DNA from: an uncultured Alcaligenaceae bacterium
GTDB taxonomy: Bacteria > Planctomycetota > Planctomycetia > Gemmatales > Gemmataceae
Assembly: GCA_964597065.1 (NCBI GenBank)
Contig: CAZQXG010000005.1
Span: 6,700 to 70,699, forward strand
Direction of reading: 5' to 3'
Length of the DNA stretch: 64,000 nt
Numbering within the stretch: the stretch's first letter is position 1; each line of letters opens with the position of its first letter. Of the stretch, positions 3,425 through 51,183 are shown in pieces. Below the pieces are notes generated by a model. That model made no database searches. It saw nothing but the letters and a program-made list of their open reading frames with translations, and was not told the origin of the DNA. A program made the translations under genes and the position numbers.

Positions 3425-6400
3425 CTACTCAGTGGTCAAAGTCCTCGCCGCACGGAAACCCACATTGAGGTTGCGGACCGTCGGCTGGAACCTGTTGCGG
3501 TAGGAGGAGCGGACGAGCACCGGTAGATAGTCGAACGAGCCGCCACGCAACACGCGGCCCATTTTATCCAAAACCTCCTTTTCCTTGTATTCAACATCGG
3601 CGAAGGGATTTTCACCCTTTGGAGTCGGGTAATACAAAACCGGATCGTGGCACCATTCCAACGCGTTGCCGAGCATATCCAACAGGCCGAAGTCGTTGGG
3701 CAGCAAGCTGCCGGCGGGCAGCATCCAGCGGTCCAGCGAGTTTTTGCTGTACCAGGCGTAGCGCGGCAGCAACTCCTCAGTTTCGCCGAAGTACCGGCTG
3801 GTCGCGGCCTCGCCCCGGCAGGCGAATTCCCATTCGGCCTCGGTGGGCAGCCGGTAGCCGCTCCGTTTCAGATAGTCGGGCACTGCTTTCATCCCTTCCG
3901 CGTATTGCCCTTGGGCGTTTTTCACATAACACCACTGTTGCTCGGGGATTTCCTCCTTGTCGCTCAGCCAGTTGCAGTAGGCGGCAGCAGCGTACCAGGT
4001 GACCAGGTTGACGGGGCAATCGGGCTTGGGGGCGTAAATCTTGTTGTAGTCATGGCTGTTGCGGAAGCGCAGAAACTGCTCAACGGTGACTTCCCTGGTT
4101 GCGATGGCGAAGGTGCGGGTGATGCGCTTCTTGTGCCGCAATTCCGTTTTCCCTTCGGGCCCGCCGTCCCGGCCGGCCTCACTCGTCGGCGAGCCCATCC
4201 AGAACTGCTTGACCGGGCCCATCACCGAGAACGTCTGCCCCTGGCCGTTGATATACCAGCGGCGCTTTTTGAGGTGCTCGGCCAGCTGAAGTTCGGAGCT
4301 GGCCAGCTCCTTGTCGATGACTTGGAGCTTGTCTCCCTGCTGCCATTGGCGGAGGAGCCAGTCGGCGGCGCCGTGGATGCCGGGATCCCGGTCGTTGCGA
4401 TAAAGCTCCAGCACCCTGGTTGTTAACGTTTCGCGCTCGCTTGCCGCAAGCTTGTCGCTGCCGAACTCGCCCAGGGCCAATAACATGGCGCGGCGGCTGG
4501 AGACATCCGGCTCCACGAACAAGCGCTGGCTGAGCATTTGAGGGTCGGCCCCGAGCAAGGGGAGTTGCCGAATCAGGTAACTGCGCCGGCGCGGGTCGGC
4601 GGAGTGCCGAAAGAGCGGCCATACCTTGTCCGGCTGAGCCATTCGCAGCAACGCTACGGCCGCGTTGGCCTGCCTTTTGGCCCATGTCTCCGTGGCGTCC
4701 TCGTGTTCCTTGGCTAATCTGTCTGTGTCCTTGGCCAACCGTTCCAGGGCGCTGCCGTCAACGATGGCCAGCGTGTAGCTGCCGCTGCCCTTCAACGAGG
4801 CGGCATAAACCTTGTAGGCACCGGCTGTGGCCGGCGTGAAGTCGAGCCTGGCGTTGAGACCTCCGCCGCTATCGTCGTCAAAGGCCAGCTGCTTGCCGGC
4901 CTTGTCGTGGAGCACCAGAAAAGCGTCCAGCTCGGCACTGGTCATGGTGATGGCGTACTTCTTGCCGGCCGGCAATTTGACGTCGTGAACCTTGGCGGGC
5001 AGGGCAAATGCTTGCGTGCCGTCGGAGCCCCGCACCTTGGCATCCTCGGCGGCAATGGTGCCGTGAACTTTGATGATCTCCGGGACCTTGACAGCCTTCG
5101 CCACGGCCGGGGCCGGCAGCTGCTTGGCGAGTTCACCCTCCAGCGCGGCGCGGCCGGCCTGTCCGTGCATCTGGAGCTTGACAAAAAGCAGGGCAAATTG
5201 CTTCCCCTCAGCGTCCGCCAGCAGCTCCGCCAGCAGGTCCGGCCGATCGGCGGCGTAGTCGGCCAGGATGTCCGTGGCCAGGGAACGCTCCGTCTCCCGG
5301 CGCTCTTGATCGCGGAAGATGCCGCCCAGTGGGTCCAGCAACGTCCTGCCCACCGGACGAAAAGAGTCCATCCAGGCGCCCACGTAGACCGCGGGAACAG
5401 CAACGAGGTCGGCCGCAACCGGCTTCTTGATCGCCTCCCAGCGCGGATCTTCCGGGGCATAGCTGGCCAGGGCGGAGGCCGCCCGCAGCCGCTGCGACTC
5501 TTTTCCTTTCGGAGGTTGCTCTGCCACGCTCCAGAGCTTGTCCAGCAGCTCCGGCTGATGGGCGGCGAGAGCGTCGCGGATCACGGGAGCTTCCTGCGGC
5601 TCGGCGTCGAGGAGCCGGCTGTAGAGGTATTTGACCTGCACGGAATCGACGGGCAGGAGGGCGAGGCTGGCGTGGAGCTGCTTGCGCATCTCCTGGTTGG
5701 CCTCGGCCTCGCGATAAGCATCTTGAAGGAGAGGGTCGATCCAGGGGCGATAACGCGCCATGTCGGCCACGATGCCCGGCACGTCCGCCGTGTTGGCAAC
5801 GAGGAGGCGGTCGCGCAAGGCATGGGCTTGGAGGGTGCCATAAGCTTCGTAGCTGCCCCAGCCGGCCAGGGCCAGTATGATTCCTATGAGCAAACCCCGG
5901 CCCGCGTGATAGCGGGTTGCCTTGCACATCATCTTGCGCTGCGGCACCGTCCAGTCGCGCTTGCGGGTGAACAGGCGGATGTTCAGCCATTCCCACCAGG
6001 CGGGCAGGTGGCGGTTTTGCGGCCTGCCCTGCCACAGGGCGGCGCGCTCCGCCAGCCGCAGCTGGGCCCGGCCTCGCCAGGTCTCCTTCTGCTTGCGCGT
6101 CAGCCATTCCCGCAGCGAGGGAACCAGATAGTCGTGCGTAAGCTGGTAGAACTTGCTTTCGTAGCCACAAGCAGCCTTGCTTGTGGGCTGGTCAGCCGAC
6201 AAGCAAGGCTGCTTGTCGCTACGGAACTCATCTTCTTCCGGCTCGGTGGGCGTGATCAGGCGCAGGTCGCTGTCCAGGATGCGCAGCAAGTCCTGGAAGT
6301 CCCCGGGGCGCTGGCTGTATCCGGAGGCATCGACAAGCTGCTGGTGGGAGCGGAGGTTGCCCTTGATCTCGGTGCCGGCGTCGGGCAGGAGGGCTTTGAG

Positions 6401-8512
6401 GACGGCCTGGGCGGCTTTTTGCTGGCGGCGATGCTGCGGAGGCGCGGTGGGGGTGGAAAAGGTTTCTTCCAGGAAGGTCACGCCCACGCCGGCGGCGCCG
6501 CCGATTTCCTTCCAGGTGGCCGGCAGCCAGGCCTTGCCCTTGACCATGTCGGCAAACAAGGCCAAGCGGACGGAAATGACCTTGCCATCCTGGGCCAACC
6601 CGGACACCGCTTGGTCGAGGAAAGCTTCCTGGTCCCTGTTTACCTGGGCGAGGTTGTCCGGCAAGCGGCCAAAAGCGCGGCCAAACTCGGCCAGCACCTT
6701 TTGGGCATGGGCGAGGTCGAACAGGTCCACGGCGGCACAGTTTTGCCCTTGCAGCAGGGGGATTTCCAGCTCCTCGAAGAAGCGCGTCACCGCCATCCAG
6801 AAATCGTCCCGGACCAGCACCAGGCACTGGACATGTTCGCCGTCGCAGTGCCGCAAGGCCTGGACCAGGTGCGGATTTTTTTCACCCCGGCGGGCATGCA
6901 GCCATTGCTCGAACTGGTCCAGGACAAGCAAAACCTTTCTGCCGGGAGCCAGGCCCTGGCCGGCGCGCAGGGCCGCCAGGGATTCCAGCAACCCGTCTTC
7001 GGCCGGCAGTCCGGGACAATGCTTGCGCAAGCCTTTTTCGAGGCGGGTTTCGGTTTCCCCGGGGCTGGCTTCGAGGTAAACGGCGGACACGTGGCCGGCC
7101 AGGCGCGGCAGCAGGCCGGCTTTCAGCAGCGACGACTTGCCGCACCCCGACGGCCCGTAGATCAGCCCCACGGAAAAGGTCCGGTCGGCATCGGCCTCCT
7201 CGATGCGCATCTTCCAGAAGCGCAGGCTTTCGGGCAAGCCGTCCCGATCGCGCGGGCCGGGAAGCAGCTCCAAAAAGAAGTCGGCATCGGCGGCGTCGAA
7301 CGAGCGCAGGCCCTTGGGAATGATCTTGACGGGCTTGGCCGCCGTGCCTGGCACAGGGCCTGGCTCCGGCTTGCCGTCGAGAAAGTGGTCGATGTCTTCG
7401 GCCAGGTCCTTAGCGGTTTGGTAGCGCTCGCTGACGCGCTTGGCCAGGGCCTTGAGGCAAATGCGCTCCAGCTCGCGCGGGATGGCATCGTCGATTTGCC
7501 GGGGCGGCCGCGCTTCCAGCTCGATGATTTGCTGGATGAGGTCGATTCGGGTGGCCCCCTGGAAAGGCCGGCGGCCGCTGAGCAATTCATAGAAGACCAC
7601 GCCCAGGCTGAAGATGTCGGCCCGGCCGTCGACGCGGTGGCTCTCCTTGCGGGCCTGTTCCGGGCTCATGTAAGCAAAGGTGCCGACCAGGTTGGCCGGC
7701 CCCTTGCCGAAGTCCTTTTCCTCGAGGGCCAGGCCAAAATCGGCCAGGAAAGGATGGCCCCTGTCGTCCAGAAGAATGTTGGCGGGCTTGACGTCGCGGT
7801 GGACCAGGCCATGGATATGGGCGCAGTGCAAGGCCTCCGCCACGCGCGCTGTCAAGGCGGCCGCTTCGGCCACGGCGGGCCGGCCTTGCCGCATCCGCTC
7901 GGCCAGGTTGTTGCCGGCGATGAAATCCGACACGAAAAAGCACGCCCCTTCCCCGGTTTGTTCCACGTCGTGGACCCCGACGATGTGGGGATGCCGCAGC
8001 CGGGCCAGGACCTGGGCCTCTTTCAAAAACAGGCCGGCAATTTCCGGGTCGGCAGCCAGGTGCGCATGCAAGACCTTGATGGCCACGTCCCGGGCCAAAA
8101 GAACATGCCGGGCCAGATACACCACACCGAAGCCGCCCTTGCCGAGCTCTTTGTGGATCTGAAACCGGTCCGGAAGCCTCGGCGGGCTGGCACGGGGCGA
8201 TGCCGGCATGTCGACACGATCCGCGGTTACCGTCCTGGCTTTGCAGAATACCTCTTTCACCATTTCCGCATGTTCCGGGAAACAGCTCAGGTAGTCTTCC
8301 AGGAACGGTGTTTCCCCATTCTGGCGGCGCAGCTCCAGCTCTCGGGCCAAAAGCGCGCGCAAGAGATAAGAGCGGTCAGCCTCTCCCGCCAGGGCCAGCA
8401 GGTCCGCGATGGCCGGACGCGGGCCGGCCTTCCAGGCCTTTTCGAAGCGGTCACAGATCTCCTCGACCCGCAACAAAAGGGACGGCGACAGGGAATCAGC
8501 GGCATCGTTCAT
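3425..8512 (-). CDS. Ser/Thr protein kinase / P-loop (STAND-like) NTPase / TM / helical repeats / PPC domain / FGE-sulfatase (C-type lectin fold) protein
   Basis: 1695 aa. Contains kinase motifs (GKGGFGVVY, HRDVKPANILL, DFGLA) and a Walker A (GPSGCGKSSLLKAG). A hydrophobic helix (LLIGIILALAGWGSY) and a PPC-like block (YAITMTSAELDAFLVLHDKAGKQLAFDDDSGG) follow. C-terminal FGE domain: RLPTEAEWEFACRG...RVLRGGSF...GFRAA. Confidence 0.93.
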   Translation of the reverse strand: MNDAADSLSPSLLLRVEEICDRFEKAWKAGPRPAIADLLALAGEADRSYLLRALLARELELRRQNGETPFLEDYLSCFPEHAEMVKEVFCKARTVTADRVDMPASPRASPPRLPDRFQIHKELGKGGFGVVYLARHVLLARDVAIKVLHAHLAADPEIAGLFLKEAQVLARLRHPHIVGVHDVEQTGEGACFFVSDFIAGNNLAERMRQGRPAVAEAAALTARVAEALHCAHIHGLVHRDVKPANILLDDRGHPFLADFGLALEEKDFGKGPANLVGTFAYMSPEQARKESHRVDGRADIFSLGVVFYELLSGRRPFQGATRIDLIQQIIELEARPPRQIDDAIPRELERICLKALAKRVSERYQTAKDLAEDIDHFLDGKPEPGPVPGTAAKPVKIIPKGLRSFDAADADFFLELLPGPRDRDGLPESLRFWKMRIEEADADRTFSVGLIYGPSGCGKSSLLKAGLLPRLAGHVSAVYLEASPGETETRLEKGLRKHCPGLPAEDGLLESLAALRAGQGLAPGRKVLLVLDQFEQWLHARRGEKNPHLVQALRHCDGEHVQCLVLVRDDFWMAVTRFFEELEIPLLQGQNCAAVDLFDLAHAQKVLAEFGRAFGRLPDNLAQVNRDQEAFLDQAVSGLAQDGKVISVRLALFADMVKGKAWLPATWKEIGGAAGVGVTFLEETFSTPTAPPQHRRQQKAAQAVLKALLPDAGTEIKGNLRSHQQLVDASGYSQRPGDFQDLLRILDSDLRLITPTEPEEDEFRSDKQPCLSADQPTSKAACGYESKFYQLTHDYLVPSLREWLTRKQKETWRGRAQLRLAERAALWQGRPQNRHLPAWWEWLNIRLFTRKRDWTVPQRKMMCKATRYHAGRGLLIGIILALAGWGSYEAYGTLQAHALRDRLLVANTADVPGIVADMARYRPWIDPLLQDAYREAEANQEMRKQLHASLALLPVDSVQVKYLYSRLLDAEPQEAPVIRDALAAHQPELLDKLWSVAEQPPKGKESQRLRAASALASYAPEDPRWEAIKKPVAADLVAVPAVYVGAWMDSFRPVGRTLLDPLGGIFRDQERRETERSLATDILADYAADRPDLLAELLADAEGKQFALLFVKLQMHGQAGRAALEGELAKQLPAPAVAKAVKVPEIIKVHGTIAAEDAKVRGSDGTQAFALPAKVHDVKLPAGKKYAITMTSAELDAFLVLHDKAGKQLAFDDDSGGGLNARLDFTPATAGAYKVYAASLKGSGSYTLAIVDGSALERLAKDTDRLAKEHEDATETWAKRQANAAVALLRMAQPDKVWPLFRHSADPRRRSYLIRQLPLLGADPQMLSQRLFVEPDVSSRRAMLLALGEFGSDKLAASERETLTTRVLELYRNDRDPGIHGAADWLLRQWQQGDKLQVIDKELASSELQLAEHLKKRRWYINGQGQTFSVMGPVKQFWMGSPTSEAGRDGGPEGKTELRHKKRITRTFAIATREVTVEQFLRFRNSHDYNKIYAPKPDCPVNLVTWYAAAAYCNWLSDKEEIPEQQWCYVKNAQGQYAEGMKAVPDYLKRSGYRLPTEAEWEFACRGEAATSRYFGETEELLPRYAWYSKNSLDRWMLPAGSLLPNDFGLLDMLGNALEWCHDPVLYYPTPKGENPFADVEYKEKEVLDKMGRVLRGGSFDYLPVLVRSSYRNRFQPTVRNLNVGFRAARTLTTE
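3444..3551 (-). repeat. variable-repeat (VR)-like 3' end of the kinase gene
   Basis: Counterpart of 2300-2407. Reads LRGGSFDYLPVLVRSSYRNRFQPTVRNLNVGFRAA. By hand count there are 29 mismatches, 16 of them at coding-strand A positions of the 2300-2407 copy. Confidence 0.6.
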
Positions 8513-12751: not shown

Positions 12752-15700
12752 ATGCATTTGATCTTGCGGACGCAAAGCACCCGGTTGTTCCTGGCCAGCC
12801 TGGCGTTGGTCGGCGTCTTCCTCTCTTGGTTGATCCTTTCGTCCGTCGTGGCTACCGGACAAGAGCCCAAATCGGCCCACCCCATCCGCCCCGGCGACCG
12901 CATCGGCATCATCGGCAACACCCTGGCCGATCGCCTGCAGCACGACGGCTGGCTGGAGACTTTTTTTTACACGCGCTTTCCCAAGCATGACCTGGTGTTT
13001 CGCAATCTCGGTTTTTCCGGCGATGAATTGACGCAGCGGCTGCGCTCGGCCAACTTCGGCAGCCCCGACGATTGGCTGCGCAGGACACAGGCGGATGTGG
13101 TGTTCGCTTTCTTCGGCTACAACGAGTCATTCGCGGGAGACGCCGGTCTGGACAAGTTCAAAAAGGACCTCAATTCGTTCGTCAAACACACGCTCTCCCA
13201 GAAGTATAACGACAAGGGCGGCGCCCGGCTGGTGCTGTTCTCTCCCATCGCCCACGAGAACTTGCACAGTGTCAACTTCTCCGATGGCGTCGACAGCAAT
13301 CGCCGGCTGGAGAAGTACACGGCCGCCATGGCCGAGGTTGCCCGCGCCAACAAGGTCTCGTTCGTCGACCTATTGCAGCCGACCAAGGAGCTTTACGCCA
13401 AGGCGAGTTCGCCATTGACCATCAATGGCATTCATCTCAACGAGCAGGGCAACGAGGAGCTGGCCAGGATGATCGACAAGGCCCTGTTCGCCAACGAGCC
13501 CGAGCCGAGGCGGGAAACGGAGCGCATGGAAAAGGTTCGGCAAGCGGTCCAGGACAAGAACTTCTACTGGTTCAACCGCTACCGGACGGTGGACGGCTTC
13601 AATGTCTACGGCGGGCGGGCCGATCTCCGCTATACCGACGGCATCAGCAATCGCGAGGTCATGCAGCGGGAGATGGAAGTCCTTGACGTGATAACTGCCA
13701 ACCGGGACAAGCGCATCTGGGCCGTTGCCAAGGGGGGCGAACTGAAAGTGGACGACGGCAACACGCCCCCCTTTATCCCGGTGAAGACCAACCTCATCGG
13801 TCCGTTGCCGGGCGGCAAGCACCTCTTCCTGGGCGGCGCGGAAGCCATCAAGAAGATGACCGTGGCCCAGGGCATGAAGATCAACCTGTTCGCCTCCGAG
13901 AAAGAGTTCCCGGAGCTGGCCAACCCGGTGCAGATGTCGTTCGACGCCAGGGGCCGGCTGTGGGTGGCTGTGTGGCCGACCTATCCGCACTGGAAGCCCA
14001 AGGAGCCGATGAACGACAAGCTCATCATCCTCGAGGACACCGACGGCGACGGCAAGGCGGACAAGCTGACCGTCTTCGCGGACAACCTGCACTGCCCGAC
14101 CGGCTTCGAATTCTACAAGGACGGCGTGCTGGTCACCCAGGCACCGGACCTTATTTTCATGAAGGACACGGACGGCGACGGCAAGGCCGATGTCCGCGTG
14201 CGGGTATTGAACGGGCTGGACTCGGCCGATACGCACCACACGTCCAACAGCTTTGTGTTCGATCCGGGCGGGGCCCTGTACTTCCAGGAAGGCATCTTTC
14301 ACCGCACCCAGGTGGAGACGCCGTACACACCGACGCGGCGCCTCGCCGATGCCGGCGTCTTCCGCTTCGAGCCGCGCACCTCCAAGTTCGACGTCTACGT
14401 GGACTTCGGCTTCGCCAACCCGCACGGACACGTGTTCGATCGCTGGGGCCAGGACTTCGTCGTGGACGGCACCGGCGCCAACCCGTTTCACGCGGCGCTG
14501 TTCTCCGGGCAGACCGATTTCGGCGGGCAGCGCCATGGCCGGCCTCCCCAGCTCTACAACCAGAAGACTCGCCCCTGCCCCGGCCTGGAAATCCTCTCCA
14601 GCCGGCATTTTCCCGAGGCCAATCAGGGCAACCTGCTGGTGGCCAACGTCATCGGCTTCCGCGGCATACTGCAATACAACTTCGAGGACAAGGGCGCCAG
14701 CTTCGCCGGCAAGGAAGTCGAGCCGATCGTCTCGTCCACCGACCCGAACTTCCGGCCGTCGGACATCCGCGTCGGCCCGGACGGCGCCATCTACTTCATC
14801 GACTGGCACAACCCGATCATCGGCCACATGCAGCACCACCTCCGTGATCCCAACCGCGGCCACGAACACGGCCGCATTTACCGCGTGACCTGCCAAGGCC
14901 GGCCGCTCTTGAAGCCGGCCAAGGTCGCCGGCCAACCCATCGACAAGCTGCTCGACTTGCTCAAGGAGCCCGAGGACCGTGTCCGCTATCGGGCCCGCAT
15001 CGAGTTGGGCGGGCGAAAGACCGACCCGGTCCTGGCCGCCTTGCAAAAGTGGGTCAACCGGCTGGACGCCAAGGACCCGGAGCTCGAGCATCACATGCTG
15101 GAAGCGCTGTGGCTGCATCAAAACCACAACGTGGTCAACCAGGATCTCTTGCAGCGGATGCTGCGCTCGCCGGATTTCCGGGCAAGAGCGGCGGCTACCC
15201 GCGTGCTCTGCTACTGGCGCGACCGCGTCCAGAAGCCGCTCCAATTGTTGCGAGCCCAGATTAACGATGCCCAGCCACGCGTCCGGCTGGAGGCGATCCG
15301 GGCGTTAAGCTTTTTCAACACCGAACCGGCCATTGCCGTGGCGCTCGAGCTTCTCGCTTATCCGGATGATGAGTACCTGCGTTTCACCTTCAACGAGACG
15401 CTCAATACTCTTGAACGCCGGGTTGGCTCCGGGACGCGAGTCGACCGGAAGAACATCGCGGTCAGCTTGTTGAACATGCTGGAGAAAGGCAAGGTGGCTC
15501 CCGAGCGGCAAGCGGTGCTGATCGAAACCATATGCCGGCACGGCAGCGACAAGGAGTTGACAGTTATCTGGGCAAAGGCCCTGAGAAAAGGCTATCCGGC
15601 CGGGCTGCGCAAGCGGGTCGTGGAATGGCTGGCGGAGGCGGCCAGCAGCCGGCGGGCCCAGCCTTCCATTGAGCCCGGAAAACTTCAGAAGTTCCTGGCG

Positions 15701-17140
15701 GAGTCGGCGGACGATTCGGCCTTGTTGCCGGAGGTCATTCGCCTCGCCGCGACCTGGAAAGTCAAAGAATGTGGCGACGACCTGAGGAAAATCGCCCGCG
15801 GAAAAGGCTCGGCCCATCGGGAAGCTCGTTTTGCCGCCATCGACGGCCTGGCGGTGCTGCACGACGCGGAAAACCAACAGGCGTTGCGGCAGTTAACGAC
15901 GTCGTCCAACCCAATGCCGATCCGCTACCGAGCGGCATCGGCCCTGGCCCAGAGCGACCTGGACGCCGGAGCGCAGGCGGCGGCCGTCGACCTGGCTTCC
16001 TCGACCGACAAGGACGACCCCAGCCCGCTGGTGGAAGCGTTCCTGAACCGCAAGCACGGGCCGGACAAGCTGGCAGCCGCTCTGGAGAAGGAAAAAGTCT
16101 CGGCCGACACCGCCAAGCGCATCTTGCGGGCCATGTTCCTGGCCGGACGGAATGATGCTTCGCTGGCCACGGTGGTGAGCAAAATCGCCGGGCTGGACGC
16201 CTCGCCCAAGCCGCCCACTCCCGACGAGGTGCGCAAGATCGGCGCCCTGGTCCTGGCTAAAGGCAACGCCGATCGCGGCGAGCGCGTCTTCCGCCGGGCT
16301 GATCTCGGCTGCATCAAGTGTCATGCCATCAACAAGGCCGGCGGACGCATCGGCCCCGACCTCGGTCCCATCGGCGGCTCCTCACCCGTCGATTACATCG
16401 TCACGTCCATCCTCGATCCCAACCAGGCCATCAAGGAGGAGTACCTCACCAAGGCCATTGTCACCACAACCGGCTTGACCCTCACCGGCATCGTCGTGGA
16501 ACGCACCAAGAACCAGGTCGTGCTCAAGGACGCCAACGGCAAGCTCTTCAAGGTCCCGACAGCCCAGATCGAAGAAGAGGCCGCGGGCAAGTCGCTTATG
16601 CCGGATGGCGTCACTCGGCTGCTTACCGACGACGAGATGCTCGACCTGGTCCGCTTTGTGTCCGAGCTGGGCAAGCCCGGCCCATTCAGCCCGCGCGCCG
16701 TGCCCACCATCCAGAGCTGGCGACGGCTGCGCGAGGTCCCGGCCTCTCTCCTGGAGGGAGTCCCCAACCGCGACCTGGTCCGCGACCACCTGCTCCGCGA
16801 CGACCCGGGGGCTTGGGAGCCGGCCTATTCCCTCGTCAACGGCGATCTGCCGCTGCAGGAACTGCCCAGAGCTTCCAAGGCGGTCTATCTCCAGGGAGAG
16901 GTGAACGTGGCCGTCGCCGGCCCGGTCGAAGTCCGCCTCGATTCATCCGAGTCCACCACGTTCTGGGTCGACGAGGAAGCCTTCGAGAAACAGGACCGGG
17001 CGACGGTGCAACTGACGCCGGGGCGTCACCGCGTCACGGTGCGGTTGGAGATCGGCAGCGCGGCCGCGCCGCGCTTGCGCGTCGAGCTGCGCAAGCCAGC
17101 CGACGCCCGGACGGTGTTCCAGGTGGTGCAGGGGGAATAG
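12752..17140 (+). CDS. PVC-type heme-binding protein (SGNH hydrolase + membrane-bound dehydrogenase domain + HEAT repeats + cytochrome c)
   Basis: 1462 aa with a signal peptide, a GDSL-like N-terminus (IGIIGNTLADR, GFSGDE), a beta-propeller-like dehydrogenase block, HEAT-like repeats and CIKCHAINKAGGRIGPDLG heme c motif. Confidence 0.92.
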   Translation: MHLILRTQSTRLFLASLALVGVFLSWLILSSVVATGQEPKSAHPIRPGDRIGIIGNTLADRLQHDGWLETFFYTRFPKHDLVFRNLGFSGDELTQRLRSANFGSPDDWLRRTQADVVFAFFGYNESFAGDAGLDKFKKDLNSFVKHTLSQKYNDKGGARLVLFSPIAHENLHSVNFSDGVDSNRRLEKYTAAMAEVARANKVSFVDLLQPTKELYAKASSPLTINGIHLNEQGNEELARMIDKALFANEPEPRRETERMEKVRQAVQDKNFYWFNRYRTVDGFNVYGGRADLRYTDGISNREVMQREMEVLDVITANRDKRIWAVAKGGELKVDDGNTPPFIPVKTNLIGPLPGGKHLFLGGAEAIKKMTVAQGMKINLFASEKEFPELANPVQMSFDARGRLWVAVWPTYPHWKPKEPMNDKLIILEDTDGDGKADKLTVFADNLHCPTGFEFYKDGVLVTQAPDLIFMKDTDGDGKADVRVRVLNGLDSADTHHTSNSFVFDPGGALYFQEGIFHRTQVETPYTPTRRLADAGVFRFEPRTSKFDVYVDFGFANPHGHVFDRWGQDFVVDGTGANPFHAALFSGQTDFGGQRHGRPPQLYNQKTRPCPGLEILSSRHFPEANQGNLLVANVIGFRGILQYNFEDKGASFAGKEVEPIVSSTDPNFRPSDIRVGPDGAIYFIDWHNPIIGHMQHHLRDPNRGHEHGRIYRVTCQGRPLLKPAKVAGQPIDKLLDLLKEPEDRVRYRARIELGGRKTDPVLAALQKWVNRLDAKDPELEHHMLEALWLHQNHNVVNQDLLQRMLRSPDFRARAAATRVLCYWRDRVQKPLQLLRAQINDAQPRVRLEAIRALSFFNTEPAIAVALELLAYPDDEYLRFTFNETLNTLERRVGSGTRVDRKNIAVSLLNMLEKGKVAPERQAVLIETICRHGSDKELTVIWAKALRKGYPAGLRKRVVEWLAEAASSRRAQPSIEPGKLQKFLAESADDSALLPEVIRLAATWKVKECGDDLRKIARGKGSAHREARFAAIDGLAVLHDAENQQALRQLTTSSNPMPIRYRAASALAQSDLDAGAQAAAVDLASSTDKDDPSPLVEAFLNRKHGPDKLAAALEKEKVSADTAKRILRAMFLAGRNDASLATVVSKIAGLDASPKPPTPDEVRKIGALVLAKGNADRGERVFRRADLGCIKCHAINKAGGRIGPDLGPIGGSSPVDYIVTSILDPNQAIKEEYLTKAIVTTTGLTLTGIVVERTKNQVVLKDANGKLFKVPTAQIEEEAAGKSLMPDGVTRLLTDDEMLDLVRFVSELGKPGPFSPRAVPTIQSWRRLREVPASLLEGVPNRDLVRDHLLRDDPGAWEPAYSLVNGDLPLQELPRASKAVYLQGEVNVAVAGPVEVRLDSSESTTFWVDEEAFEKQDRATVQLTPGRHRVTVRLEIGSAAAPRLRVELRKPADARTVFQVVQGE

Positions 17141-33810: not shown

Positions 33811-34482
33811 CTACGGCTCGGTATCGACCCGGGCCCAGATCATCGGGGTGGCCGGGCCCTTGAGGCGAACGTCGGGGAACATGTTGTCGCTGGCGGCTGG
33901 CTGAACACTGGTGACCGTCACTTCGCCGGGGGCCAATAGCTCCAGCGGCCCTTGCACCGGCATTTGTCCCACCACCAGAGAATGCGTGTCGGCCCCTTCC
34001 ACGCTGAGGATCTCGATCTCCGCGCTGGAGGCCACGAGGTAAATCTCGAGCGGCGACGGGACAACCGCAGGCGGATTATCGACTTTCGCGGCCAGACCGA
34101 TCTGCTGCGGACGCGGCTCGGGCCACAGGGGCTCGGGCCACAGGAAGGCGACCAGCAATACCGCGGCAGCCATGGTCCCCAGCGCCGCCACCAGCGCGCC
34201 CCAGCGAAGCCCTCGTCGCCTCGAAGTCTCGAGCGGAAGAGATTGCAGCCGCTCCAGGACCACGGCCCAGGATCCGGGCGCCGGCTCGGCTGGACTGGTT
34301 TCGTCCCAGAGTTCCTCGAGCGGCCGGTTGCCGTGCACCTGGTCCAGGTCTTCGGGATGCTCGGCCAGCCAGTGCTCGACTTCCTGTCGGAACGGCCATA
34401 GCGCAGGGTCCCGCTCCAGCTCGCCGTCGGCGTAGGCGGCGAACAACTCGGGCCTGGGTTTACCTTTTTCCCACTGGCTCAT
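33811..34482 (-). CDS. anti-sigma factor (single TM)
   Basis: Overlaps the 3' end of the ECF sigma gene. N-terminal LFAAYADGELE motif and a central TM helix (WGALVAALGTMAAAVLLVAFLW). Confidence 0.7.
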   Translation of the reverse strand: MSQWEKGKPRPELFAAYADGELERDPALWPFRQEVEHWLAEHPEDLDQVHGNRPLEELWDETSPAEPAPGSWAVVLERLQSLPLETSRRRGLRWGALVAALGTMAAAVLLVAFLWPEPLWPEPRPQQIGLAAKVDNPPAVVPSPLEIYLVASSAEIEILSVEGADTHSLVVGQMPVQGPLELLAPGEVTVTSVQPAASDNMFPDVRLKGPATPMIWARVDTEP

Positions 34483-35089
34483 GATTGGCGTTCAACAAGG
34501 GCTCGAGAAAGGCGCGCAACTTTTGTCGGGCGTAGTACAGCCGGCTCATGACCGTGCCGATGGAGATCCCGAGAACGTCCGCCACTTCGCGGTAACTCAG
34601 GTCCGCCTCGGCATGAAGCACGAAGGTGCGGCGCTGGGCCTCGGGAAGCCGGGCCAACGCCCGCTGCATCATTTGGCGAAATTCGGCCCGTTCCAGTCCC
34701 TCGGCCGGGTTCTCGTGCCTCAACAAGGGCTCCACCGCCTCACGGTCAGGCCCGGCCAACGCGTCCAGGCGGATCGCTTCACGGCGCCGCCGTTGCCTGC
34801 CCAGATCCAGCGCGGCGTTGCTCACCACGCGCAACAACCAGGTCTTGAACGTGCTTCGCCCTTGGAAATTCCGCAGGTGCGTCAGCGCTTTGATAAAGCC
34901 GTCCTGCACCGCATCGAGCGCGTCGGCCTCGTTGCCTAGAAGTCGATATGCCACCCGGTACGCCAGCGCTCGATAGCGCTGGAAAAGCTCTTCCAGGGCC
35001 GCCCGGTCCCCTCTGGACCAGCGGGACAAAAGCTGCTCGTCGGCACTTTCGTGCTTGCTGACCGGCGCGGAAACGGACATAACGGCCAT
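34460..35089 (-). CDS. ECF-type RNA polymerase sigma factor
   Basis: Region 2 (AYRVAYRLLGNEADALDAVQDGFIKA) and region 4 (LSYREVADVLGISIGTVMSRLYYARQKL). Start at 35089 or 35080. Confidence 0.88.
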   Translation of the reverse strand: MAVMSVSAPVSKHESADEQLLSRWSRGDRAALEELFQRYRALAYRVAYRLLGNEADALDAVQDGFIKALTHLRNFQGRSTFKTWLLRVVSNAALDLGRQRRRREAIRLDALAGPDREAVEPLLRHENPAEGLERAEFRQMMQRALARLPEAQRRTFVLHAEADLSYREVADVLGISIGTVMSRLYYARQKLRAFLEPLLNANHEPVGKR

Positions 35090-35137
35090 GACGCGGGCCT
35101 TCCCCTGATAGACGGCCGGGCGAACTTCCTTATTCGG

Positions 35138-35167
35138 ATTGTAATGCGCCGACCTTGGGAAAGGCAA
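35138..35167 (-). promoter_or_regulatory. possible sigma70-type promoter upstream of the ECF sigma gene
   Basis: On the minus strand: TTGCCT, 18 nt, TACAAT. Pattern match only. Confidence 0.25.
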
Positions 35168-35198: not shown

Positions 35199-36230
35199 CT
35201 AGGTGCCGGGCCCGATGAGCTTTTGCACGGCCTGCCACATGGCGCGATGGGCTACCTCGCGATGGGCGCGGAAGCCAAGGGAATCGGCACGCACGCGCGC
35301 GGCATCGTCTTCGAGTTGCTCGCCAAGCCGGAAGTACAGAAACCACATGCCGCCCGCCAAGTCCCCTTCGCGATCGTAAATGAACAGCGGATGGCCGGCC
35401 TTGTCACCGACGACGGCCTGGAATTCATCCAGGTGCTTGCGCGCCAGAGTTTGCGGGGCCACTTCCAGGGACAGGAATTTCAGCCCGCGCTTTTCGGCCT
35501 GCTTGCGGTCCGGGCCATCCGAATCGCCTGGCTTGCGCAGGAACAGCACCGTGCGATAGCCGTTCGCCTGCAGCCAGTCCAGCCCTTCATCAAGCGCCGG
35601 GCGCAGGCCGTTGGCCACCTGCTCCTTGACCATGGTGAACTGCGGGATGCCGACCGGCAAAGCGGGCGGGGAATGGCTCTTCGTTTCGGGACCGGTCTTG
35701 GCGCCGGGAGGCGATTGCAGCGGCGGCTCCGAGGTCTGGGACGGATACAGCTTCTTTTCGTCTTTTGACTCCCCCGCCAACGGTTGCGGCGCCTCGAGCT
35801 TCACCGAACCCGGGGCGGGCTCCCAGCGATAGTCGGGCTTTTGACTGGTGCTGGGCGGATAACTGCTGAAGCCGGGTGGTGGGGCAGGCGGCGGAATCGG
35901 TTGCGAACTTGGCGGCAAGGGCACCGCGCCCGGCGGCGGCGGTGGGGACACGGCGCCCGACGGCGGCGGCGGAACCGTGGCGGGCGGCGGCGGAACCGTC
36001 CCTCCGGGCGGAAGCGCCGCCGGCAGCGGCACAGCCCCTGCCGGAGGCGGCCCGCCGGGAAATGCCGGCGGCGCTGGAGCCGGGGTCACCGCTCCCGGCG
36101 GAAATCCCGGCGCGGGATATGGCGCCGCGGGACATGGCGCCGCGGGACGGCATCGGCCACGACTCTTGCACCCCGATCCCCAAACAACCAATCCGGCCAC
36201 AAGCAGCCCGCGGAACCAAGGATTTCTCAT
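35199..36230 (-). CDS. lipoprotein with long Pro-rich linker and C-terminal phosphatase-like (DSP/PTP-like) domain
   Basis: Lipobox VVWGSGC and a low-complexity region of about 150 aa rich in P, A and G. The C-terminal NGYRTVLFLRKPGD...GLKFLSLEV...PLFIYDREGDLAGGMW resembles planctomycete phosphatase-domain proteins. Confidence 0.6.
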   Translation of the reverse strand: MRNPWFRGLLVAGLVVWGSGCKSRGRCRPAAPCPAAPYPAPGFPPGAVTPAPAPPAFPGGPPPAGAVPLPAALPPGGTVPPPPATVPPPPSGAVSPPPPPGAVPLPPSSQPIPPPAPPPGFSSYPPSTSQKPDYRWEPAPGSVKLEAPQPLAGESKDEKKLYPSQTSEPPLQSPPGAKTGPETKSHSPPALPVGIPQFTMVKEQVANGLRPALDEGLDWLQANGYRTVLFLRKPGDSDGPDRKQAEKRGLKFLSLEVAPQTLARKHLDEFQAVVGDKAGHPLFIYDREGDLAGGMWFLYFRLGEQLEDDAARVRADSLGFRAHREVAHRAMWQAVQKLIGPGT

Positions 36231-36415
36231 GGTTCGTCCTTTTCAAAAGCCGATCGCCCTTCGGAAAAAGGGCAATGATCCATCTGGATTTTACGTGAGG
36301 CGGCCCCGGCCAACCCAGACGGGCTTGCCGAAATGTGCCAGGATTGGCCGCTAAAATGGGTCGGGAATTCGGCCTGGGGGGAATTTAACGCCGACCGTGG
36401 GGCCGGGTCGGAAAG

Positions 36416-36461
36416 CACAGAAAAAATAATACCCGTGTCCCCCACTAAAAGGGGACACGGG
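36416..36461 (-). terminator. Rho-independent terminator of the ArsC/Spx-like gene
   Basis: 11-bp perfect stem cccgtgtcccc/ggggacacggg with a 7-nt loop. On the minus strand it is followed by UAUUAUUUUUUCU. Confidence 0.8.
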
Positions 36462-36553
36462 AAGATGAAGATTGGGCGGATAACCTCCCTGTTGGCACGA
36501 TGACAAGATCACTATAACGCGCGGTCCCGGGCCGTCAAGGAAAAAAGGACCGC

Positions 36554-36907
36554 TCAGCCACTTTTGTGCAAGGCTTGACGATACGCACCCTCGTCGAACC
36601 CGACCAGGAGGGTGTTGCCCTTGCGGAGGGTTGGGGCTCGGAGATTGCCGGATGGCCCCAGCAGATGCGCCAGCAGCGTGGCGTCGTCGGGCCTGTCCTT
36701 TTTCATGTCGAAGGTGACGACCTTTTTCCCCCGGGCGACCACCACCTTGGCGGCCGAGCGCGCCAGGGCCAGCGCCTCTTTCGGCCCCTGTCTTTCCTTG
36801 CGCGCGTCCTGAACCTCATCCACTTCAACGCCGTTCTTCTCAAGGAACCCCTGAGCCTTCTTGCAGGTCGTTCAGCTTTTGCGATGATACAGCCAGTCAA
36901 TCTTCAT
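36554..36907 (-). CDS. ArsC/Spx-family thioredoxin-fold protein with in-frame TGA at the first Cys of CxxC (candidate selenoprotein)
   Basis: ATG 36907, then MKIDWLYHRKS-TGA(36872-36874)-TTCKKAQGFLEKNGVEV, continuing in frame into the listed 36554..36823 ORF for 117 codons. Compare the Spx N-terminus SPSCTSCRKA. Confidence 0.65.
36839..36855 (-). promoter_or_regulatory. candidate bacterial SECIS hairpin
   Basis: The mRNA reads CUCAGGG-GUU-CCUUGAG, starting 17 nt after the UGA, with G/U in the apical loop. One pair is a G-U wobble that exists only in the sense-strand RNA. Confidence 0.4.
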
Positions 36908-37114
36908 TGTCGTTGGTCCTTTTCGCTTGGAAATCGAGGCGGCTTCTTTTTCGTGCACACCCCCCACGCGCACACCCTCATAATTGGAATTACACCCTAC
37001 CGGAATTACCAATCCTTCACAGTTCGTTTCCCAAGTCTCTTAGATACTTCATGTTACGACCCAGGCTTCGACCAGTTGCAGGAAGGATTCTGGCACGGGG
37101 TACCCTGTTCGCGT

Positions 37115-38302
37115 CTAGTAGCGCGGCATACCCGGGTCGATCCGCTCGGCCCATTCGAGAATGCCGCCCTTGAGGTTCTTGAGGCGCGAGAAGCCTTGCT
37201 CGCGAAGGAACTGGATGGCGCGGGCGCTGCGCATGCCGCTCTTGCAGTGAACGACGATCTCGCGAGCGCGATCTAGCTCGCCGAAGCGCTGCGGCAACTC
37301 GGGCAAGGGGATGAGGACGCTGCCGGCAATTCGGCAAATCTGAAACTCGGGCGGATTGCGGACGTCGAGGATGTACACCGGCTCGCCTTTTTTGACCATG
37401 GCGTGCAGCTCCTCGACGGTGATTTCGTAGCCCTCACGCTCCGCGTGAGGAGAGCCGGCAGTCGCCTCCTGCCCGCGTACTCCGCAGAATTCCTCGTAAT
37501 CGATCAGCCTGGTGATGGTCGGCTGGTCGCCGCACAGCGGGCAGCGCGGATTGCGGCGGACCTTGAATTCCTGGAAGCGCATTTCGAGAGCATCGTAGAG
37601 CAACAGCCGGCCCACGAGCGGCGAGCCCTGGCCCAGGATCAGCTTGACCGCCTCCGTGGCCTGGATGCAGCCGATCAGCCCGGGAAGAATGCCTAGCACG
37701 CCTCCCTCCGCGCAGCTCGGGACCTCACCGGGAGGGGGAGGCTCCGGGTACAGGCAGCGATAACATGGGCCGTGCGGTGGATAGAACACGGATGCCTGGC
37801 CGTCGAACCGGAAGATGCTGCCATACACGTTCGGCTTGCCCAGGAGCACGCAGGCATCGTTGACCAGGTAGCGGGTCGGAAAATTATCGGTGCCGTCGAT
37901 GATAATGTCGTAAGGCTCGATGATGCCGATGGCATTGGCGGAAGTCAAGCGCGTCTCATACAGGTCGAGGACGACTTCAGGATTGATGGCCTGGATGCGG
38001 TCGCGGGCGGACTGAAGCTTGGGCCGGCCGACGTCGGGCGTGCCGTGAATCACCTGGCGTTGCAGGTTGCTGAAATCGACGACATCGAAATCGACCAGCC
38101 CGATCCGGCCGATGCCGGCCGCCGCCAGGTACAGCCCCAGCGGGGCGCCCAGTCCTCCGGCGCCCATCAAGAGGATCTTGGCCGACTTGAGGCGCTTCTG
38201 CCCCTCCACGCCGACTTCCGGCATGATCAAGTGCCGGCTGTAACGGGCCATCTCCTTGGGGGAGAGATTTACTTGACTCGGAAGTTCCAGTTGCAGGTTC
38301 AT
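37115..38302 (-). CDS. moeB: MoeB/ThiF-type adenylyltransferase with C-terminal rhodanese domain (MoeZ-like)
   Basis: ATG at 38302. GAGGLGAP nucleotide loop, CxxC pairs (CYRC, CPLC), and a rhodanese active site (HCKSGMRS). Confidence 0.9.
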   Translation of the reverse strand: MNLQLELPSQVNLSPKEMARYSRHLIMPEVGVEGQKRLKSAKILLMGAGGLGAPLGLYLAAAGIGRIGLVDFDVVDFSNLQRQVIHGTPDVGRPKLQSARDRIQAINPEVVLDLYETRLTSANAIGIIEPYDIIIDGTDNFPTRYLVNDACVLLGKPNVYGSIFRFDGQASVFYPPHGPCYRCLYPEPPPPGEVPSCAEGGVLGILPGLIGCIQATEAVKLILGQGSPLVGRLLLYDALEMRFQEFKVRRNPRCPLCGDQPTITRLIDYEEFCGVRGQEATAGSPHAEREGYEITVEELHAMVKKGEPVYILDVRNPPEFQICRIAGSVLIPLPELPQRFGELDRAREIVVHCKSGMRSARAIQFLREQGFSRLKNLKGGILEWAERIDPGMPRY

Positions 38303-38429
38303 GGTCTGTTTCCTGTGCTGCAGGTTTATTGCATCATCATATGGAATCAGCCATGGAAAGACTTTGCTGGCGACAGACACGATCGGAAAGAGTATCATTA
38401 ATGAAACTCAGGATGCAGGAGGAGTTAAC

Positions 38430-39041
38430 ATGGCTTTCAGCAACTTCAGCCTCCAAGAACTCGCCAGGACCTATGAGGTGAGCGTTGGCATTGCACCGTT
38501 CATCCATGCAAGTCCTTATTCGGTGAACGAATACTTTGCCAACGACCTGGCCTTCGTGCGGCAAAACATGGACGTGCGCGTTTCCGAGGCAGCGATCTGC
38601 GAATTCATGATCGCGCCGGTGCTTAAAGAAATCTGGAAAGCCTACAGCGATACGTTCTTAATGTGGAGCCATGTTTCCTTTGGGAGGGAACAACCGCTGA
38701 TCGGGATGCCGGACTACTATTTTTCGTGGAGGTCGCCGCTCGGGCTAGTGCCGGACCAGCCCTACCTGATCGTGGCCGAGGCCAAGAAAGACGATTTCGA
38801 AGCTGGCTGGGGACAGTGCCTGGCAGCCATGCTGGCCGCCCAGAAGATGAACGGGCAAACGACTTGGACCGTCTACGGTTGCGTGTCCAACGGCAGCCTC
38901 TGGAATTTTGGAAAACTGAAAGGCCGGGTTTTCACCCAGGAGACTCAACAGTTCGTGATCACCGATCTGCCGCAACTTTTTGGGGCCCTGGATTATATCT
39001 TTGCTCGGGCCAAGGAGCAGGTGCAGGCACCGGCGGCTTGA
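38430..39041 (+). CDS. PD-(D/E)XK nuclease-fold protein, paralogue 1
   Basis: ATG after AGGAGGAG. PDYYF...LIVAEAKKDDFEAGWGQCLAAM gives a D...EAK motif typical of restriction-endonuclease-like proteins. Confidence 0.65.
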   Translation: MAFSNFSLQELARTYEVSVGIAPFIHASPYSVNEYFANDLAFVRQNMDVRVSEAAICEFMIAPVLKEIWKAYSDTFLMWSHVSFGREQPLIGMPDYYFSWRSPLGLVPDQPYLIVAEAKKDDFEAGWGQCLAAMLAAQKMNGQTTWTVYGCVSNGSLWNFGKLKGRVFTQETQQFVITDLPQLFGALDYIFARAKEQVQAPAA

Positions 39042-39882: not shown

Positions 39883-41151
39883 TCAACTGTATGCCCCAAT
39901 CACCAAACAGCAATTATGCCCGCCGAAGCCGAAGCTATTGGACAGGGCGTGGCGAACCCGTGCCTCGCGCGGCGAATTGGGGACGTAATCAAGATCGCAG
40001 GCCGGGTCCGGGTTGTCAAGGTTGATGGTGGGGTGGATGACGCCGGTCGTGATGGTCAGGGCGGTGGCGATGAGCTCGACGCCGCCCGAGGCGCCCAGGA
40101 GATGGCCGATCATGCTCTTGGTGCTGGAGATGGCCAGTTTGGAGCAATGCTCGCCGAAGACGTGCTTGAGGGCGCGGGTTTCGGCCTCGTCGCCCAGGGG
40201 GGTGCTGGTGCCGTGGGCGTTGATGTATTGGATGTCCTCGGGATTGAGTCGGGCGTCCTTGAGGGCCAGCTTCATGGCCCAGGCGGCGCCGGTGCCGTCG
40301 GGATGCGGGGCGGTGATGTTGTGGGCGTCGGCGGTGCTGGCGCAGCCCAGGACCTCGGCATAAATGCGGGCGCCGCGCTTTTGGGCGTGTTCCAGCTCTT
40401 CGAGGATGATCAGCCCGGCCCCCTCGCTGAGGACGAAGCCGTCGCGATCGCGGTCGAAAGGGCGGCTGGCTCGCGGCGGATCATCGTTGCGGGTGGACAG
40501 GGCGCGGGCGGAGATGAAGCCGCCCAGCCCCATCGGCGTCGTGGCCGCCTCGGTGCCGCCGCTGATCATGACGTCGGCGTCGCCGTAGCGGATGGTGCGC
40601 ATGGCCTCGCCGATGGCATTGGCGGCCGAAGCGCAGGCGGTGGCCACGGCCGTGTTCGGCCCGCACAGCCCCAGCTGGATGGAGATGTTCCCCGGAGCAG
40701 CGTTCACCATCATCTTGGGAATGGTGAACGGGCTGATCTTGCCGGGGCCGCCGTGGATGTAGCGCGAATGCTGCTCTTCGTACTCGTTGAGGCCGCCGAT
40801 GCCGCTGCCCAGGGCCACGCCGCAGCGGTAGCGGTCTTCCTGGGAGAGGTCCAGGCCGCTATCCTTGACGGCAAACAGACAGGCCACCAGCGCGAATTGG
40901 GCATACCGGTCCAGCCGCTTGACTGTCTTGGAATCGAGGTACTCCTCGGCATTGAAGTTCTTCACCTCTCCGCCAAAGCGAACCTTGAAAGCGCTGGTGT
41001 CGAACTGCTCTAGCGGCGCGATGCCGCTCTTGCCGGCGCAAAGCGCCTCCCAGAACGACTTCAAGTCGCTGCACAGGGGGTTGACCGTACCCATCCCGGT
41101 TATGACCACCCGCCGGTAGCGGCCGCCCCCATTGAGATTGTCGCGCGTCAT
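39883..41151 (-). CDS. fabF: beta-ketoacyl-ACP synthase II
   Basis: [14 protein letters not shown]...[12 protein letters not shown]...HGTSTPLGD...NSFGFGGHN. Confidence 0.95.

Positions 41152-47898: not shown

Positions 47899-51183
<3,285 letters not shown>

Follow-up and report, generated by a model that had tools for sequence, protein, structure and literature searches.

The locus raises a question of decoding: is the TGA that interrupts an ArsC/Spx-like reading frame on the minus strand of the window (the whole 64-kb stretch of DNA that was analysed) a selenocysteine (Sec) codon, or does it end a protein? The mechanical ORF list contains only 36554..36823(−), a frame of 89 aa with a GTG start, and the source's gene call, P0001, is the same truncated ORF. 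An earlier note on this DNA held that the listed ORF lacks the N-terminus of its family and that the missing part can be read upstream in the same frame from an ATG at 36907. Translation confirmed this. The complete coding sequence (36554..36907, minus strand) runs from ATG 36907-36905 to a TGA stop at 36556-36554, 117 codons plus the stop, and its translation opens with MKIDWLYHRKS, the UGA and TTCKKAQGFLEKNGVEV..., with this UGA as the sole internal stop and no frameshift. The full product as translated reads MKIDWLYHRKS-(UGA)-TTCKKAQGFLEKNGVEVDEVQDARKERQGPKEALALARSAAKVVVARGKKVVTFDMKKDRPDDATLLAHLLGPSGNLRAPTLRKGNTLLVGFDEGAYRQALHKSG-(stop). The in-frame TGA is codon 12 (36874-36872, minus strand) and occupies the first position of a UxxC motif (U-T-T-C), whose second Cys, Cys15, is the TGC at 36865-36863(−). 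The source gene caller halted at the UGA and reported the downstream 89-aa piece only; among the codons dropped are the 11 at the N-terminus, MKIDWLYHRKS (36875..36907, minus strand), which make up strand β1.

Signals that may frame the gene were read on the same strand. A putative Shine-Dalgarno-like AAAAGGA (36917..36923, minus strand) lies 9 nt before the ATG. Of the clean terminator said to follow the gene, the hairpin itself stood up, a strong 12-bp stem with 9 G-C pairs (36461-36432, minus strand) succeeded by a T run, but it lies 93 nt past the stop codon and not directly behind it; this intrinsic-terminator-like element (36422..36461, minus strand) is the probable 3' end of the transcript. 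Between the stop codon and the terminator we also observed a sigma-70-like promoter match, TTGACG-16-TATAGT (10/12; 36511-36538, minus strand), which together with the terminator could define an independent transcript of ~80 nt (~36504-36422) containing AGGGAGG. This putative transcript has no Rfam match, the stretch is not conserved downstream of homologous genes, and the relatives show no conservation in the 3' UTR.

We conclude, with a probability of about 88%, that the product of 36907-36554(−) is a selenoprotein of 117 residues in the ArsC/Spx (glutaredoxin-fold) superfamily, a member of NCBIfam family NF041106 in which UGA12 specifies Sec and which most likely acts as a redox protein. 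Family membership was scored on the 117-aa protein with U read as C. Against NF041106 ('ArsC_rel_Se_1', ArsC family (seleno)protein) it reached 147.1 bits, compared with a cutoff of 85, in a full-length alignment of residues 3-109 to model positions 1-107 of 107, and against Pfam ArsC (PF03960) it reached 29.8 bits, compared with a gathering threshold of 24, over residues 7-111. The same NF041106 model was matched by 23/23 homologues tested, and two close relatives in Gemmataceae MAGs, P0004 and P0076, already carry the NCBI name 'ArsC family (seleno)protein'. The window protein shares with the family its length, the position of the U/CxxC motif and the invariant GKK..FDMK and GNLRAP motifs; there is no substantive difference between them, the window copy being merely mis-called as an 89-aa ORF. 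Scores fell short of the cutoffs for Spx/MgsR (TIGR01617, 38.6 vs 75.05 bits; NF002459, 23.1 vs 123 bits), for the ArsC family reductase (NF008107, 18.4 vs 121 bits) and for glutaredoxin (PF00462, 19.4 vs 22.9 bits, a match limited to residues 6-32).

In a family profile search, the closest solved structures were Spx, SACOL0876 (2m46) and YffB, with the U/CxxC aligned to their CxxC. As a stand-in for the window protein, an AlphaFold (AF2) model was made of P0004, a Cys homologue 71% identical to it. The model (pLDDT 90.5) has a predicted glutaredoxin-type core, β1-α1-β2 ... β3-β4-α3, in which helix 1 opens with the redox Cys, and a middle section consisting of a helix and a β-hairpin formed by the invariant GKKVVxFDMKK. 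This is the most conserved motif of the family (window residues ~55-69). The corresponding middle section of Spx and ArsC is helical.

Could the protein nevertheless be a true arsenate reductase of the R773 ArsC type, or a regulator that binds RNA polymerase as Spx does? Such a function would agree with the Pfam ArsC match and with the standing of Spx from Bacillus subtilis (PDB 1z3e, 3gfk, 6ghb) as the nearest solved structure by both profile and fold. The window protein also has in common with Spx the N-terminal position of the CxxC and the L-R-x-P, here LR(A/R)P, and G-F-N/D-E motifs. However, its scores lie far under the curated cutoffs for both Spx/MgsR and the ArsC reductase, Foldseek ranked Spx structures first for the P0004 model with a TM of only ~0.5, and Spx carries Cys where the window protein carries Sec. 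The predicted β-hairpin, GKKVVTFDMKK in the window protein, and the helix beside it are likewise unlike the all-helical insert of Spx, and there are neither ars genes nearby nor a conserved gene neighbourhood. We therefore regard either function as unlikely; for arsenate reduction, this judgement follows from the family scores and the missing ars genes. NF041106, with its invariant GKKVVxFDMKK β-hairpin and GNLRAP loop, may instead be a small selenol/thiol oxidoreductase distinct in function from both arsenate reductases and Spx-like regulators, a suggestion that we put forward tentatively.

The decoding of codon 12 was addressed through its homologues. A search of protein databases returned 1460 relatives. 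One class consists of proteins of 115-119 aa that have a CxxC with Cys at the Sec column. Many others are 100-108 aa long and start with 'MTCKKAQG...', one codon past the Sec column; these are, on their sequences, gene calls truncated at the UGA. A scan of one genome per species confirmed 591 loci. The best 80 of them (L002-L081), all from distinct species, were each aligned to the query at the codon-12 column. The 80 are mostly Planctomycetota (Gemmataceae, Gemmata, Fimbriiglobus, Kuenenia), with Acidobacteriota, Binatia, Rokubacteria and Tectomicrobia MAGs also among them, and the closest locus in the scan has 67% identity. One of the 80, L057, is from the cultured strain Gemmata algarum JC673 and carries TGA at this column. 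The earlier note had named alternation of Cys and Sec at this column as a check, and alternation is what we found: in the best 80 of 591 loci, codon 12 is TGA in 61, TGC in 11 and TGT in 8, and never TAA or TAG. NF041106 is thus dominated by Planctomycetota and Sec-encoded in about three quarters of the species sampled in these best 80 of 591 loci.

The flanks of the column are equally regular. IDWxYHRxx precedes the TGA/TGY codon in 80/80 loci, and Cys15 (36863..36865, minus strand), the resolving Cys of the UxxC, is invariant in the protein alignment and is Cys in all loci save one. In the alignment with Spx and SACOL0876, the codon-12 column itself matches the first CxxC Cys and is therefore the conserved redox Cys, so that the placement of the UGA (36872..36874, minus strand) at the first CxxC Cys of an ArsC/Spx-family protein, claimed from the letters of the window, holds on this alignment and on the NF041106 and PF03960 matches. 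The locus that departs at Cys15, L033:3031, is a TGA form that reads U-T-S-S instead of U-x-x-C; its resolving Cys is replaced by Ser while the hairpin described below is kept, and in this it is like the 'UxxS' class of ArsC selenoproteins in the GOS study.

A Sec codon in bacteria is accompanied by a SECIS hairpin, and the fold proposed for this one, CUCAGGG-GUU-CCUUGAG with one G-U pair and G/U in the apical loop, was recovered in both the MFE and the centroid structures of single-sequence folding. On the minus strand it comprises CUCAGGG (36855-36849), the loop GUU (36848-36846) and CCUUGAG (36845-36839). The hairpin (36839..36855) starts after 16 intervening nt from the UGA, has a 7-bp stem with one G-U pair and overlaps the A-Q-G-F-L-E codons of helix 1. 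The folding energy of the region was indistinguishable from that of shuffled sequences (z = 0.08; 102/200 shuffles fold equally well), so the window sequence is by itself no proof of a SECIS, and the significance of the hairpin comes solely from comparison with homologues.

In all TGA forms the hairpin is found in the same register, at columns 19-37 counted from the U of the UGA, with the consensus GCNCARGG-GUU-CCUYGNGC. Covariation was computed on the 56 TGA forms that align without gaps. Standard pairs fill 94.4% of the cells, compared with 34-59% once the 3' partners have been shifted by 1-3 columns, and 0/500 shuffles attain the observed covariation score, which arises within coding sequence, where codon constraints could contribute. 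Changes on both sides (compensatory changes) occur in 4/8 pairs. Across the 56 forms, pair 21-35 is GC in 32, UA in 18 and CG in 4; pair 26-30 is GC in 42 and AU in 13; pair 19-37 is GC in 23 and UA in 10; and pair 23-33 is AU in 52 and GC in 4. The change at column 35 recodes Glu (GAG) to Ala (GCG), while that at its partner, column 21, is a synonymous third-position change, and constraint on the protein would make the paired changes hard to explain. At the position of the window's own G-U pair, 40 relatives likewise have G-U and 16 have A-U. The window's stem stops at 7 pairs, one short of the 8 in most relatives, because its outer G·A does not pair; the outer pair is also missing from 18/56 relatives.

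The hairpin also separates the two kinds of homologue. Of the cells in its inner seven pairs, 94% are paired in TGA forms, compared with 36% in Cys forms; all seven are present together in 50/62 TGA forms and in 0/19 Cys forms, and the GUU loop is present in 59/62 TGA forms. The same helix is encoded in the Cys forms, although they lack the hairpin. Over the SECIS (36839-36856, minus strand), the Sec forms hold a fixed peptide, (A/S/T)Q(G/E)FL, whereas the same stretch of the Cys forms is widely varied (ADAFLE, AEAYRE, AKTHLD and others), and therefore the RNA hairpin visibly constrains helix 1 of the protein. A SECIS just downstream of the UGA, as first proposed from the window alone, thus gains the support of a conserved, covarying hairpin that is present in the TGA forms and lacking in the Cys forms.

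How the hairpin compares with known SECIS elements was considered next to these counts. The bSECISearch model of Zhang and Gladyshev from 2005 reportedly describes a small apical loop whose first base is G, a stem of 4 bp or more and a distance of 16-37 nt between UGA and loop, and our hairpin fits this bacterial consensus in those three features. With the SECIS of E. coli fdhF it shares a position immediately 3' of the UGA within the coding sequence and G and U in a small apical loop. It differs from the fdhF type in that the stem in the window's family is a perfect one of 7-8 bp with a 3-nt GUU loop and the bulged U is absent; the loop, a putative SelB site, sits 23 nt past the UGA. Rfam at gathering thresholds gave nothing relevant in the 64-kb window; for 36250-37120, searched in E-value mode, it gave only a chance match to HgcF (E = 0.28).

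We then considered whether the host could decode UGA as Sec. TGA is the normal stop of 7/16 other domain-bearing genes in the window and, as an ordinary stop there, has not been reassigned. None of selA, selB and selD was found among 36 larger ORFs of the 64-kb window, a set that leaves out the three largest, and neither ARAGORN nor Rfam found a tRNA-Sec (selC) in the 64-kb window. ARAGORN did call an 87-nt 'tRNA-Gly(gcc)' at 35974-36060(−) with its anticodon at position 37; the call falls in a CCG/GCC-rich tract of a Pro-rich ORF (35199-36230), where Rfam has no tRNA, and it is probably a false positive and not a tRNA-Sec. A survey of CxxU and UxxC contexts in the window, 33 candidates in all, revealed no second selenoprotein gene, the candidates other than codon 12 looking like out-of-frame, Arg-rich junk. 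The window is planctomycete DNA: it has a GC content of 62% and carries a PSCyt2/PSD1 protein, and the nearest homologues of the selenoprotein belong to Gemmataceae and Planctomycetota. Its very large ORFs lie at 3425-8512(−), 12752-17140(+) and 47899-51183(−) and encode 1695, 1462 and 1094 aa, respectively. Gemmata obscuriglobus and other planctomycetes possess full gene sets for Sec insertion (PMC4807772), which makes the Sec trait plausible for this lineage.

An in-frame UGA can also be read through without Sec, by near-cognate suppression with Trp or Cys or, under selenium limitation, by insertion of Cys via the Sec pathway. A Cys at this site is functional, as the Cys forms show, and Sec at codon 12 is a prediction, but the Sec pathway has as its signature just such a conserved SelB-type hairpin, set at a constant spacing from the UGA and with G/U in its small apical loop, and TGA terminates other genes of the window in the normal way. 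We consider read-through of this kind quite improbable.

Still less probable is a nonsense pseudogene, the alternative offered in the earlier note, in which a TGC or TGT of an ordinary Cys gene of the ArsC family mutated to TGA. The source annotation, with just the 89-aa downstream ORF, and the window, with no Sec machinery found in it, are both what a pseudogene would give. However, TGA stands at the same column in 61 of the 80 other species (best 80 of 591 loci) and the other two stop codons in none; the start codon, the 11 codons upstream and the 105 codons downstream are intact and conserved; and the covarying hairpin goes with TGA and is missing from the Cys forms. Because a nonsense mutation in one species cannot give this joint pattern of TGA/TGY and hairpin, the pseudogene is rejected on the codon column and the hairpin. 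Least credible of all is that the real product is the 89 aa from GTG 36823, or 105 aa from just past the UGA, with the upstream similarity a relic, since, for all its agreement with the mechanical ORF and the deposited call, it would on the structural model miss strand β1, the entire U/CxxC centre and half of helix 1, no start codon directly follows the UGA here (ACG ACC TGC), and full-length Cys homologues align from residue 2. The interpretation as a Sec codon with a downstream SECIS is supported by codon alternation, the Spx alignment, the conserved hairpin and the NF041106 score taken together.

If UGA12 is a Sec codon, the hairpin 16 nt downstream is most likely bound by SelB·GTP·Sec-tRNA(Sec) as the ribosome reaches UGA12, and the complex would compete with release factor 2 in supplying the ribosome with Sec. 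The U12-T-T-C15 centre of the product would lie at the N-terminal end of helix 1, where Spx and glutaredoxins have their CxxC. U12 would attack a substrate disulfide or an oxidant, and C15 would resolve the intermediate as a selenenylsulfide, chemistry that is that of UxxC thioredoxin-fold selenoproteins generally. The protein would most likely cycle between the selenol/thiol and selenenylsulfide states, and fold and motif suggest a small selenol/thiol-disulfide oxidoreductase or redox sensor as its most likely role.

The neighbourhood was searched for partners. Upstream and co-oriented lies a MoeB/MoeZ-type ThiF-rhodanese adenylyltransferase (37115-38398, minus strand) with a C-terminal rhodanese domain, in its Cys form; among the selenoprotein families recorded from marine metagenomes is MoeB itself (PMC2398784). 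Beyond it on the upstream side comes FabF (39883-41151), and the other neighbours are an ECF sigma factor (34460-35167) and the Pro-rich protein (35199-36230, minus strand). Adjacency to MoeB recurs only in the two closest loci of the 80, L005 and L027; L033 has a homologue on the opposite strand, and 5 of the 80 have FabF in the vicinity. Clustering of all flanking ORFs from the 80 loci revealed no conserved gene partner; the selenoprotein gene looks like a stand-alone unit, and with no conserved neighbourhood the context gives no clue to function. Unmatched ORFs were also seen nearby. The Pro-rich one encodes 343 aa with a lipoprotein-like signal at the N-terminus and a long Pro-rich region of low complexity, has no Pfam match and adjoins both the ECF sigma factor and a 223-aa ORF without a match (33811-34482); the group may be an anti-sigma or envelope module. 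Another, 246 aa without a family match (38301-39041, plus strand), lies between MoeB and FabF on the opposite strand, and because the FabF-MoeB gap in L027 is only ~370 bp, it may be an insertion.

This is a real selenoprotein gene, but its family is already curated, which makes the result a correction to annotation rather than a discovery. Zhang et al. 2006 (PMC1794560) include 'ArsC-like' selenoproteins, the GOS selenoproteome contains 'Arsenate reductase 2, cd03032, UxxC' (PMC2398784), and a 2022 review lists 'Arsenate reductase-like protein, COG1393, UxxC' (PMC9312934). ArsC-like UxxC selenoproteins have thus been on record since 2005-2008, and novelty is accordingly low; because the literature and NCBIfam already cover the family, the way it alternates between Sec and Cys and how it is classified, the finding opens no new question. 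The families of Zhang, Gladyshev and co-workers have in common with ours the ArsC-superfamily fold, Sec at the first position of UxxC, Cys homologues and a SECIS directly downstream. They were defined mainly from Deltaproteobacteria and marine metagenomes, whereas the subfamily of the window is dominated by planctomycetes. In the literature surveyed, no experimental incorporation of selenium has been reported for the family.

For the organism, the gene marks the host as a probable selenocysteine user. For the family, the tight link between the SECIS and the helix 1 codons for Q-G/E-F-L would, if true, be a clean case of RNA structure constraining protein sequence, and if NF041106 is a distinct oxidoreductase, its substrate would be new biology. 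In public metagenomes the same UGA cuts short the gene calls of hundreds of relatives. The selenoprotein thus escapes gene callers systematically, and the Planctomycetota selenoproteome is undercounted.
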